Below are positions 5,787 to 6,066 of a stretch of DNA of 64,000 nt, piece by piece. Below the pieces are notes generated by a model that saw only the letters and a list, made by a program, of their open reading frames with translations, was not told the origin of the DNA and ran no database searches. Source of the stretch: Escherichia virus TH42. The number at the start of each line of letters is the position of its first letter. Within the stretch, counting starts at the first letter, position 1. A program made the position numbers and the translations under genes. The stretch lies in sequence record MT446413.1, one strand, 5' to 3'.

Positions 5787-5813
5787 TGGTGGACTATCTG
5801 GAATCGAACCAGA
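5787..5813 (-). tRNA. tRNA-like 3' fragment (T-arm, acceptor-like strand, CCA)
   Basis: Minus-sense TCTGG-TTCGATT-CCAGA then TAGTCC-A-CCA; no 5' acceptor partner found by hand within 120 nt. Confidence 0.3.
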
Positions 5814-5911
5814 AGCTCACTAAGAAAGCAATTCCCACTGTTATAAAAGCACTTGCCTCAACAGGGATACACTAACTCTGGTGCCGTACCCATACTAGCC
5901 CTTGTTTAAAA

Positions 5912-5940
5912 TTGGTCGGGACGGAAGGATTCGAACCCTC
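5912..5940 (-). tRNA. tRNA-like 3' fragment (T-arm, 7-nt acceptor strand, A, CCA)
   Basis: Minus-sense GAGGG-TTCGAAT-CCTTC then CGTCCCG-A-CCA; only about 25 nt separate it from the preceding element, so it cannot be a full tRNA. Confidence 0.3.
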
Positions 5941-5964
5941 TTACGTTGATTTAAAAGCTCTTAG

Positions 5965-6043
5965 CGGGGGTTACAGGACTCGAACCTGCATACTCCAGTT
6001 ACTCGGTTAACGCCCGTTTAGAAGACGGGTGAGATAAACCCCC
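5965..6043 (-). tRNA. tRNA-like element, possibly tRNA-Arg(UCU); non-canonical by hand folding
   Basis: Perfect 7-bp acceptor pairing GGGGGTT/AACCCCC, T-arm GCAGG-TTCGAGT-CCTGT, hairpin CCCGT-CTTCTAA-ACGGG with U33/A37-like positions and TCT at anticodon positions; D-arm not identified (7 nt between acceptor and this hairpin, 23 nt before T-arm). Confidence 0.4.
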
Positions 6044-6066
6044 ATTAAGAGCTTTCAATATTTTGT

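Follow-up and report, generated by a model that had tools for sequence, protein, structure and literature searches.

A 64,000-nucleotide (nt) stretch of the genome of Escherichia virus TH42 (sequence record MT446413.1), here called the window and numbered from its first letter, carries a cluster of three tRNA-like elements that we designate E1, E2 and E3. E1, 79 nt long, is most likely a working tRNA-Arg(UCU), its expression, charging and decoding being read from its sequence and its relatives; its comparative support and the circumstantial evidence that it functions, both strong, mark it as a new structural variant of tRNA, with a core that appears to be permuted. Our explanation of the cluster as a whole is that E1 is a functional permuted tRNA-Arg that replaced a canonical one, E2 a stub of the displaced gene and E3 a separate tRNA-like gene, and to this we assign a probability of roughly 0.7. 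The window belongs to an E. coli podophage of the Gordonclarkvirinae (Kuravirus/Suseptimavirus group), the closest deposited relative being vB_EcoP_HC-25922 (HC-25922; 97% identity over 2 kb, 99.7% over the E1–E3 region). All three elements lie on the minus strand amid a run of short early genes, and the cluster is a set of three unrelated items in the long early operon of a Kuravirus-type podophage, as follows.

6046..6055, minus strand: leader strand AAAGCUCUUA, extending the E1 acceptor stem past a 2x2 internal loop (read from the sequence)
5965..6043, minus strand: E1, putative rewired (permuted) tRNA-Arg(UCU), 79 nt (family alignment, pair counts, covariance-model scores of 105 and 96.9 bits)
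5954..5963, minus strand: trailer strand UAAGAGCUUU, pairing with the leader strand (sequence, folding)
5935..5952, minus strand: junction segment AAAUCAACGUAAGAGGGU, resembling a ribosome-binding region (match to phage ECBP2)
5913..5940, minus strand: E2, 3′ remnant of a canonical tRNA-Arg(UCU) without its 5′ half (identity to the tRNA of phage CHD5UKE1)
5787..5901, minus strand: E3, 115-nt tRNA-like RNA (conservation, acceptor pairing)

Architecture of E1

The initial annotation of this region drew attention to three matches to a T-loop consensus, and these were readily recovered: the 64-kb window contains exactly three copies of GGTTCGANTCC, all of them on the minus strand (5800-5810, 5927-5937 and 5976-5986), against a mean of 0.05 in shuffled sequence, with none of 100 shuffles reaching three. 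No ordinary, high-scoring tRNA covers these motifs. ARAGORN finds no tRNA and no transfer-messenger RNA (tmRNA) in the whole window, its relaxed, intron-tolerant and mitochondrial modes yield no credible call (and in mitochondrial mode none on the correct strand), and an Rfam search over 5400-6500 returns nothing significant besides a match to E1. That match, of the tRNA model to 5965-6043, scores 36.4 bits (gathering score 29) but places 4 nt where 15 D-arm positions are expected and accommodates a 20-nt insert in the variable region. The ARAGORN and Rfam results rule out ordinary tRNAs misfolded by hand; since tRNAs with normal D-arms are absent at all three motifs, this is not a routine tRNA cluster.

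E1 does possess the 7-base-pair (bp) acceptor stem, the T-arm and the 5-bp hairpin with a CUUCUAA loop that had been ascribed to it. The acceptor stem pairs 6037-6043 with 5966-5972 and is followed by U8-A9-U10 (6034-6036); the anticodon arm occupies 6013-6029, with the anticodon UCU at 6020-6022; the T-arm lies at 5973-5989; and the discriminator is G 5965, with no CCA encoded. The acceptor and anticodon stems are only 7 nt apart. No D-arm had been found in E1 by hand, which is correct insofar as neither ARAGORN nor Rfam sees a canonical one, but a 3-bp D-stem-like helix, formed by 6031-6033 and 6002-6004, encloses the anticodon arm, with a bulge at 6005-6012 and a D-loop-like segment, UAACUGGAGUAU, at 5990-6001. 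Hand folding failed here because the D-stem strands and the D-loop stand in a non-canonical order, not through any error on the reader's part.

This arrangement emerges from a family alignment of 64 distinct sequences (A3), from which all pair counts given here are taken. Across the alignment 94.5% of cells are paired and 19 of the 21 pairs vary on both sides, a result matched by none of 500 shuffles. The acceptor, anticodon and T stems alone are 94-99% paired, with 15 of their 17 pairs varying on both sides: the acceptor helix (alignment columns 1-7 with 72-78) is 99.3% paired and all seven of its pairs vary on both sides, the 5-bp T-stem is 98.8% paired and closes a canonical 7-nt loop of the form UUCRANY, and the 5-bp anticodon stem is 94.4% paired, with U33 (column 21) and A37 (column 25) invariant. 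Two covariance models separate the family cleanly from its surroundings, scoring members at 53-106 bits and canonical tRNAs in the same loci at no more than 39 bits.

The fourth helix was spotted in searches that left the linker free, where changes in UCUC, just after U8-A9, went together with changes in GAG on the far side of the anticodon arm. Columns 11-42, 12-41 and 13-40 are paired in all 64 sequences, as CG (63) or UA (1) at the first, as UA (37), GC (15), AU (11) or CG (1) at the second and as CG (52), GC (7) or UA (5) at the third. Taken by itself this helix is 100% paired, compared with 73.2 ± 2.1% in shuffled alignments (0/500) and with 13-43% when the partner strand is slid by one to three columns. 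At least nine complementary variants are seen (CUC/GAG, CGC/GCG, CAG/CUG, CAU/AUG, CAC/GUG, CUU/AAG, CGG/CCG, UCC/GGA and CGU/ACG), CUU/AAG occurring also in phage Bas93, and CCC/GGG is found in a further locus (L133). The neighbouring positions U8, A9, U10, U43, A44 and A45 are invariant in the alignment, although they lie outside the search pattern. Folding of the single E1 sequence to its minimum free energy instead prefers a local, variable-arm hairpin (columns 38-40 with 47-49), but this candidate was rejected: no pair in it changes on both sides, it is 77.6% paired and 14-22 sequences are unpaired at each of its pairs.

The helix formed by columns 11-13 and 40-42 encloses the anticodon arm, leaving a single nucleotide (usually A) on the 5′ side and a bulge of 7-8 nt, CGUUAANN, on the 3′ side (3-4 nt in one divergent member, L095 2689-2763); with so short a 5′ spacer and the bulge on the 3′ side, it can stack on the anticodon stem as a normal D-stem does. 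Its 3′ strand is followed by U-A-A-Y-U-G-G-A-G-U-A-U, which leads straight into the T-stem. The D-loop of E. coli tRNA-Arg(UCU), AGUUGGAUA, is close to this D-loop-like segment. From these features we infer that the core of E1 is a non-circular permutation of the cloverleaf, reading 1-9 / 22-47 / 10-21 / 48-76 in standard numbering, and that in this mapping U8, A14, R15, G18, G19, A20, A21 and Y48 would all have invariant counterparts. The permutation would amount to a swap of two adjacent internal segments, which could have originated in a tandem duplication of 10-47 followed by two deletions. The chain would then run from U8-A9 through one D-stem-like strand, the anticodon arm, the 7-8-nt bulge and the other D-stem strand to the D-loop-like segment (A-A-Y-U-G-G-A-G-U-A) and so to the T-arm. 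With the D-stem still able to stack and the GG still able to reach the T-loop, an L-shape would be possible, equivalence in three dimensions being read from the pairing pattern.

E1 as a probable arginine tRNA

The anticodon loops of the 64 family members are CUUCUAA (51), CUUCUAC (5), UUUCUAC (3), UUCCUAA (2), UUUCUAA (1), CUACGAA (1) and CUUCGAA (1), so that the only anticodons represented are UCU, CCU, ACG and UCG, all of them for arginine; scans in which the loop was left free, or which used the covariance models, turned up no family member with a non-arginine anticodon. Identity of bacterial tRNA-Arg is set by A/G73, A20, C35 and U/G36 (PMC9976931). All 64 family members have C35 and all 64 have U or G at position 36 (U-C-U in the window), 61/64 carry A or G as discriminator (G in the window) and 40/64 encode CCA, in agreement with the anticodon and discriminator components of the identity set. 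As to A20, an A follows the GG in all 64 sequences, this A being part of the search pattern; it may occupy the position-20 pocket.

The genomic setting points in the same direction. Where phages carry arrays of 15-28 tRNA genes, none but the rewired gene has a UCU anticodon, and it is often accompanied by a canonical Arg(ACG). The complete genome of Felix O1 has 25 canonical tRNAs, among which arginine is represented only by Arg(ACG), and AGA is its commonest arginine codon (40%, or 16.9 per 1000). The complete HC-25922 genome (70,042 bp) has no canonical tRNA at all, and 21% of the arginine codons in the window are AGA (10.8 per 1000). E. coli itself uses AGA about 2 times per 1000 codons. 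It is the arginine-only anticodons, the position of E1 in place of its relatives' single tRNA-Arg(UCU) and the lack of any other AGA reader in Felix O1 that lead us to regard E1 as most likely a working tRNA-Arg(UCU), and of the options raised initially, that of a real tRNA-Arg missed by hand folding is the most likely for E1. Such a tRNA would read AGA and probably, by wobble, AGG, and the host ArgRS would charge it through C35, U36, G73 and the A following GG (the A20 equivalent). There is precedent for tolerance of unusual bodies in this host, as unadapted E. coli HisRS, EF-Tu and ribosomes accept a tRNA that lacks the entire D-arm, with decay by PNPase the limiting factor (PMC11551756).

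The leader and trailer of E1

A 7-bp inverted repeat had been reported to flank E1. The repeat is real, and extends to 10 bp: AAAGCTCTTA (6046-6055) pairs with TAAGAGCTTT (5954-5963). The fold of 5955-6053 is more stable than expected (z = -3.7), and a compensatory change is seen between the window (GCUCUUA/UAAGAGC) and the Ounavirinae phage record LPML1 (GCACUUA/UAAGUGU). About 10 of the 64 family members have leader/trailer helices of 12-15 bp that continue the acceptor stem; none of these, the window, LPML1 and Bas93 among them, encodes a CCA. The similarity of the flanks suggests that the cassette in the window came from an Ounavirinae-like donor. Processing of such a precursor could involve RNase III, then RNase P, 3′ trimming and addition of CCA by the host enzyme. 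In phi92-like phages the rewired gene is preceded by a promoter-like sequence similar to that of its tRNA neighbours; near the cluster in the window, a promoter and terminator scan gave nothing informative.

Distribution and annotation of the E1 family

BLAST searches with E1 identified relatives at 80-92% identity in 223-255 deposited phage genomes. Family members are carried by Felix O1 and other Ounavirinae, phi92-like phages (Justusliebigvirus), jumbo phages of the 121Q/PBECO4 type and T5-like and KpS8-like Klebsiella phages, with partial BLAST matches only in some Streptomyces phages, and pattern scans of IMG/VR added many further copies. Cellular homologues were also sought, in a signature scan of 185,579 bacterial and archaeal species genomes, and discarded: the scan gave six pattern matches, of which four were real, and all four lie on contigs of metagenome-assembled genomes that carry phage-style tRNA arrays.

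Among the matches listed, most records have nothing annotated over the E1-type element and a few have 'tRNA-OTHER'. In Felix O1 (AF320576, 25951-26028) the rewired tRNA is overlapped by a coding sequence, 'ORF100 unknown', in VpaE1_ev78 (LR597663, 27987-28068) it is annotated on the wrong strand and in 121Q (KM507819, 73585-73666) it is annotated as tRNA-Leu(taa). The last assignment would make an anticodon of the GUUAA bulge, which we rejected: the bulge has no flanking stem, varies (GUCAA, AUUAA, UUUAA) and is reduced to 3 nt in L095:2689.

More divergent members were also seen. One, at L087 13348-13426, has a UCU anticodon, a weak or 2-bp D-stem-like helix and the D-loop GGAUAGA, while that at L095 2689-2763 has ACG and the 3-4-nt bulge mentioned above; each adjoins a standard family member, so that some phages have two or three rewired tRNA-Arg isoacceptors. 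Canonical and rewired tRNA-Arg(UCU) genes stand side by side at L103 (1522-1598 and 1614-1692), the only clear co-occurrence among the loci examined. A distinct 64-nt tRNA-like sequence, GUACUCUAUGAUAUAAUGGGAUUAUCUCCGAUUGGAGUAUGUGGGUUCGAAUCCCACUAGAGUAU, with an acceptor stem, one D-arm-like hairpin and a T-arm and no anticodon arm, was noted in IMG/VR at L058 11902-11965, in the same form in L073, L083, L086, L094 and L126 and as a variant in L109.

Turnover at the tRNA-Arg locus and the origin of E2

In most related phages the E1 locus holds one canonical 76-nt tRNA-Arg(UCU), in one of two sequence types, GCGCUCU... (101114UKE3, ECBP2) or CGGGGCG... (CHD5UKE1), and in some relatives this tRNA directly precedes the next gene. 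In the window and in HC-25922, where E1 is 100% identical, E1 and then E2 stand in its place. A second rewired allele, about 80% identical to E1, is found in Bas93 (68.9 kb) between an HNH endonuclease gene and a homologue of the window's orf99, so that canonical and rewired genes alternate at a single locus among related phages. HNH endonuclease genes also adjoin the locus, directly on its upstream side, in YF01 (L138 1-42) and Bas91, the position in Bas93 being L152 233-682. A search for related loci with the window's 99-amino-acid (aa) neighbour gave four loci, none of them with E1 or E3. It seems probable that E1 replaced a single canonical tRNA-Arg(UCU) by recombination at this locus, and the homing-endonuclease neighbours may explain its mosaic character, with two canonical types, two rewired alleles and E3 variably present or absent.

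E2 and E3 had both been described as a T-arm, an acceptor strand and CCA with no 5′ partner. For E2, the middle element, this holds: it comprises a T-arm (5924-5940), the acceptor 3′ strand CGUCCCG (5917-5923), discriminator A (5916) and CCA (5913-5915), and it folds no better than shuffled sequence (z = +0.9). From GAGGGTTCG through the CCA, the spacer and E3, the window is the same as CHD5UKE1, where this sequence is the 3′ end of an intact 76-nt tRNA-Arg(UCU) (L008 373-448). The 17 nt preceding E2 match the ribosome-binding region of ECBP2 orf46 (AATCAACGTAGGAGGGT, then atATG), a match that is 17/17 in HC-25922, and the junction segment overlaps the E2 T-stem at a common GAGGGTT microhomology. 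Judged by these matches E2 is a recombination scar: what is left, without function, of the 3′ end of the canonical tRNA-Arg that was displaced, with the joint at GAGGGTT. The earlier suggestion of tRNA 3′ fragments is thus borne out for E2, as a fragment of a phage tRNA-Arg. Its alternative derivation from host tRNA-Pro or from an att site was rejected: E2 is identical to the phage gene, and its best match in E. coli genomes, to tRNA-Asn, reaches only 87.5% (E=1). Lacking a close E. coli match in the case of E2 and any E. coli match in that of E3, neither element is the att-like remnant that had been proposed.

Just upstream of E1, on the minus strand at 6067-6644, are three tandem small open reading frames (83, 54 and 61 aa) that resemble paralogues. 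They have in common H-x-H/W and C-K-x-C motifs (e.g. ...FHFHEW...CKVCG...), suggesting small zinc-binding proteins.

E3, a tRNA-like RNA with an alanine-type acceptor

A 5′ partner does exist for E3: GGGCUA (5896-5901) pairs with UAGUCC (5791-5796) as G1-C, G2-C, G3.U, C4-G, U5-A and A6-U, which defines a 115-nt RNA with a T-arm (5797-5813), an unpaired A (5790) and CCA (5787-5789). Its middle portion of about 80 nt has no 7-nt anticodon loop. The element is present at full length in 29 deposited genomes of the kuravirus group. Among nine phages of three genera it varies at four sites only (A15G, G24A, A48G and G73A, all transitions), which in a fold constrained by the acceptor stem and T-arm fall in loops or preserve a pair (A-U to G.U), while the sequence diverges immediately before G1 and immediately after CCA and the downstream genes differ. 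E3 is identical in IME267 and MLP3, where the surrounding 2 kb is about 95% identical to the window.

The 3′ 30 nt of E3 (T-arm and 3′ strand) are 93.5% identical to the tRNA-Gln of T4-like Klebsiella phages. E3 lacks the discriminator G of that tRNA, and the resulting shift of register produces an acceptor with G1-C72, G2-C71, G3.U70, A73 and CCA, features that every tRNA-Ala conserves and that in many contexts suffice for AlaRS (PMC9976931). Compared with tRNA-Ala, G4-C69 is replaced by C-G and the stem is 6 bp long. No Rfam family, no ARAGORN tmRNA call and no match in 5,426 E. coli genomes was found for E3, and a search for divergent homologues in which covariation could be assessed found none in IMG/VR, metagenomes or E. 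coli. We considered and rejected a tmRNA: ARAGORN's tmRNA mode is negative even when relaxed, Rfam recognises only the 17-nt T-arm (8.5 bits), E3 is 115 nt long and the sole frame that opens at a GCA codon continues into the T-arm. A 66-nt 'tRNA-Arg(tct)' called inside E3 by relaxed ARAGORN was regarded as spurious, as equally relaxed settings give six overlapping calls.

On its conservation and pairing, we take E3 to be a discrete, conserved tRNA-like RNA gene with an alanine-type acceptor, not the bare tRNA fragment first suspected. It would probably be processed like a tRNA and may be charged with alanine; its role could be that of a processing signal separating the tRNA from downstream mRNA, or of a mimic.

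Two further observations bear on E3. In ECBP2 (JX415536, ~67,497-67,612; L003 1308-1412, minus strand) an unrelated 105-nt sequence stands in the place of E3, forming a long, stable hairpin structure (-44.4 kcal/mol, z = -5.0) that ends in GGGGCUACCA; no relative of it was found in 50,697 phage records. Separately, arrays of 28-37 tRNA genes on metagenome contigs contain 64-nt tRNA-like RNAs (L146 ~475-540, L147 ~7791-7855 on the minus strand, L148 and L149). All have acceptor ends that match E3's (GGGCU...UAGUCC-A-CCA, with G3.U70 and A73), two short hairpins, in which compensatory changes separate L146 from L147, and a T-arm; they have no 7-nt anticodon loop and draw no ARAGORN call. RNAs with an alanine-type acceptor and no anticodon may thus recur in phages.

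Weighing the evidence

Several points weigh against the reading of the cluster offered above. RNAalifold alone returns only the three long helices, the fourth costing about 1.3 kcal/mol in the nearest-neighbour model, so it is covariation that carries the fourth helix; the software that omits it also misfolds canonical tRNA-Arg. Most IMG/VR members were gathered with patterns containing TGGAGTATG or CGTTAACCGAG, so that these stretches, among them the GGA read as G18-G19-A20, are invariant in part by construction. The BLAST-derived members, part of which are in the alignment, are free of this bias. The exact junctions of the permutation are uncertain, since the AGUAU preceding the T-stem could be an ordinary variable loop, as it is in some canonical phage tRNAs, and there would then be no A20 equivalent. 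E1 and the host have the same anticodon loop, for which reason the design offers no obvious protection against nucleases that read the loop. With its paired leader and trailer and no CCA, the copy in the window would be an unusual precursor for E. coli. As for E3, its fold is no better than that of shuffled sequence (z = -1.6, a thermodynamic measure only) and some kuraviruses lack it.

This last point bears on the most durable of the alternatives, that E3 is a non-functional chimera of a tRNA-Gln remnant with unrelated sequence, its acceptor pairing and G3.U70 being accidental. The near-identity of its 3′ end to a phage tRNA-Gln and its unremarkable fold would both be expected of such a chimera, a 6-bp complement would arise by chance within about 100 nt in some 10% of cases by our own estimate, and ECBP2 manages with a different RNA in the same place. 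Debris would hardly be expected, however, to show only four variable sites in 115 nt over three genera, each a transition that falls in a loop or keeps a pair, nor to have flanks and a downstream gene that change exactly at its ends, nor to persist unchanged in IME267 and MLP3, with their roughly 95% identical surroundings. We regard the chimera as possible, if on balance unlikely.

It is more doubtful still that the E1 family consists of tRNA mimics, uncharged or non-translating decoys for a defence directed at tRNA-Arg (an anticodon nuclease or other effector) or molecules that titrate a modification enzyme. A normal tRNA-Arg(UCU) anticodon loop on an unusual body is what a decoy might look like; retron Eco2 cleaves host tRNA-Arg among others (PMC12916289), and phage tRNAs are described, in passages of three papers (PMC10264068, PMC11464382, PMC11555353), as countering tRNA-cleaving defences. 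Mimicry leaves unexplained, though, why the gene should be the sole reader of UCU type in the near-complete tRNA sets of AGA-rich phages, why it should replace the only tRNA of kuraviruses and why four arginine anticodons should occur on one scaffold that keeps C35, U/G36, a purine discriminator and CCA. A decoding tRNA could, moreover, also resist a nuclease, and the two roles are not mutually exclusive. The link to counter-defence against anticodon nucleases suggested initially is a possibility that the present results neither strengthen nor weaken.

Two other possibilities can be given very little weight. The conserved features might act as DNA, the inverted repeats and hairpins being recombination or homing sites (HNH targets or att-like remnants) and not RNA genes. 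The HNH genes that adjoin the locus in YF01, Bas91 and Bas93, its character as a recombination hot spot and the perfect 13-15-bp inverted repeats flanking some family members fit this view, but a homing target needs neither strand-specific covariation of four helices that tolerates G.U nor an arginine-only loop, purine discriminator and encoded CCA, and the promoter-like sequence in phi92-like phages and the lack of close E. coli matches to E2 or E3 also speak against it; endonucleases may account for the mobility of the gene but not for its nature. Least credible of all is decay, with E1 a tRNA-Arg pseudogene and the cluster functionless debris of tRNA turnover: E2 next door is certainly debris, the locus is highly mosaic among kuraviruses and no CCA is encoded, but E1 is unchanged in HC-25922, is a top scorer in a family whose conservation spans unrelated phage groups and hosts, shows compensatory changes in all four helices, a covariation that already contradicts decay, and sits in a phage with no other tRNA and heavy use of AGA.

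Comparison with known RNAs

Canonical phage tRNA-Arg(UCU) genes, as in CHD5UKE1, 101114UKE3 and ECBP2, resemble E1 in their CUUCUAA loop, the sizes of their acceptor, anticodon and T arms, their purine discriminator and their locus, and the T-arm of E1 has nearly the same sequence as that of 101114UKE3. T4 has a canonical gene of this kind too. Both forms presumably do the same job, that of reading AGA, a codon rare in E. coli and frequent in the phage. E1 differs in that its anticodon arm follows the 5′ strand of the D-stem, a D-loop-like segment precedes the T-arm, an 8-nt bulge takes the place of the short variable loop and ARAGORN misses it.

The short connector between the acceptor and anticodon stems, with no D hairpin, recalls tRNAs that lack the D-arm, such as mitochondrial tRNA-Ser(AGY/UCU) and the synthetic mini HisT (PMC7609411, PMC11551756), the latter demonstrating that the machinery of E. 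coli tolerates such bodies (PMC11551756). Those tRNAs have no equivalent of the D-stem and no elbow elements, whereas the E1 family has a covarying D-stem-like helix, an invariant UGGA and a canonical T-loop available as its partner, and occurs in phages of bacteria, not in organelles. With class II tRNAs (Leu, Ser, Tyr and Sec) E1 shares some 23 nt between the anticodon arm and the T-arm, which Rfam models as a variable-region insert; there is no conserved hairpin in this stretch, however, part of which pairs with columns 11-13 instead, and a long variable arm is thus not what it represents.

A non-standard order of segments within the gene is also found in the circularly permuted tRNA genes of Cyanidioschyzon merolae (Soma, as cited in a passage of PMC10085705), where, on that account, circularisation and cleavage yield a standard mature tRNA; in E1 the acceptor strands follow each other as usual, and the mature RNA would retain the internal swap. 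Closer in principle are permuted hammerhead ribozymes (PMC10085705) and tRNA-like structures of the turnip yellow mosaic virus (TYMV) type (PMC11472068), in which helices and key nucleotides are kept while the order of connection has changed. The TYMV structure is shaped like a tRNA and can be aminoacylated, its connectivity being non-standard, and the tRNA-like structures of plant viruses are non-circularly permuted mimics at the 3′ ends of viral genomes, not decoders (PMC11472068). E1 has instead a standard acceptor stem without a pseudoknot and a standard anticodon arm, and its family is seated in tRNA gene arrays.

E3, which lies directly behind a tRNA gene, may be akin to two stable RNAs encoded in the tRNA cluster of T4, species 1 and 2. 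E3 also has, like the tRNA-like domain of tmRNA and minihelices derived from tRNA-Ala, G1-C72, G2-C71, G3.U70, A73 and CCA (PMC9976931), together with a canonical T-arm and no anticodon. It differs from tmRNA in its length (115 nt against about 250 nt or more), in the absence of a tag frame outside the T-arm and of pseudoknots, in its 6-bp acceptor and in having a T-arm from a phage tRNA-Gln.

Implications

We found no phage or bacterial tRNA of E1's arrangement described in the open-access full-text literature, in which an earlier report is possible. Phages go unmentioned in a 2020 review of non-canonical tRNAs, a 2024 paper describes every known bacterial tRNA as a canonical cloverleaf (PMC11551756) and non-circular permutation of a natural RNA was first reported in 2023, in hammerhead ribozymes (PMC10085705). 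On a broader picture, to which we would give slightly better than even odds, E1 represents a natural, translationally active tRNA with a permuted core, of single origin and specific for arginine, that has spread horizontally through unrelated phage lineages (Felix O1-like, phi92-like, T5-like, jumbo, Kuravirus and possibly Streptomyces phages) and been largely missed by annotation; its body may have been selected for escape from a host activity on canonical tRNA-Arg, such as a nuclease or PNPase-type surveillance, and E3 would be an alanine-accepting, anticodon-less RNA with a new role.

If this is so, the tRNA counts of hundreds of deposited phage genomes, including those of Felix O1, phi92 and 121Q, are wrong at the E1-type gene, where the records show no annotation, a tRNA on the opposite strand, a tRNA-Leu(UAA) or an overlapping coding sequence. 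Should a permuted tRNA prove to function with bacterial ArgRS, EF-Tu and ribosomes, the structures known for decoding tRNAs would span a wider range, and nature would have supplied a test of which connections in the tRNA core are truly required for translation and processing. Genetic-code engineering would gain a small scaffold that might be orthogonal to host factors. Phages may keep the rewired design because it evades tRNA-targeting defences, resists decay or is modified in a different pattern, and which of these candidate reasons applies would be directly testable in easy laboratory systems.

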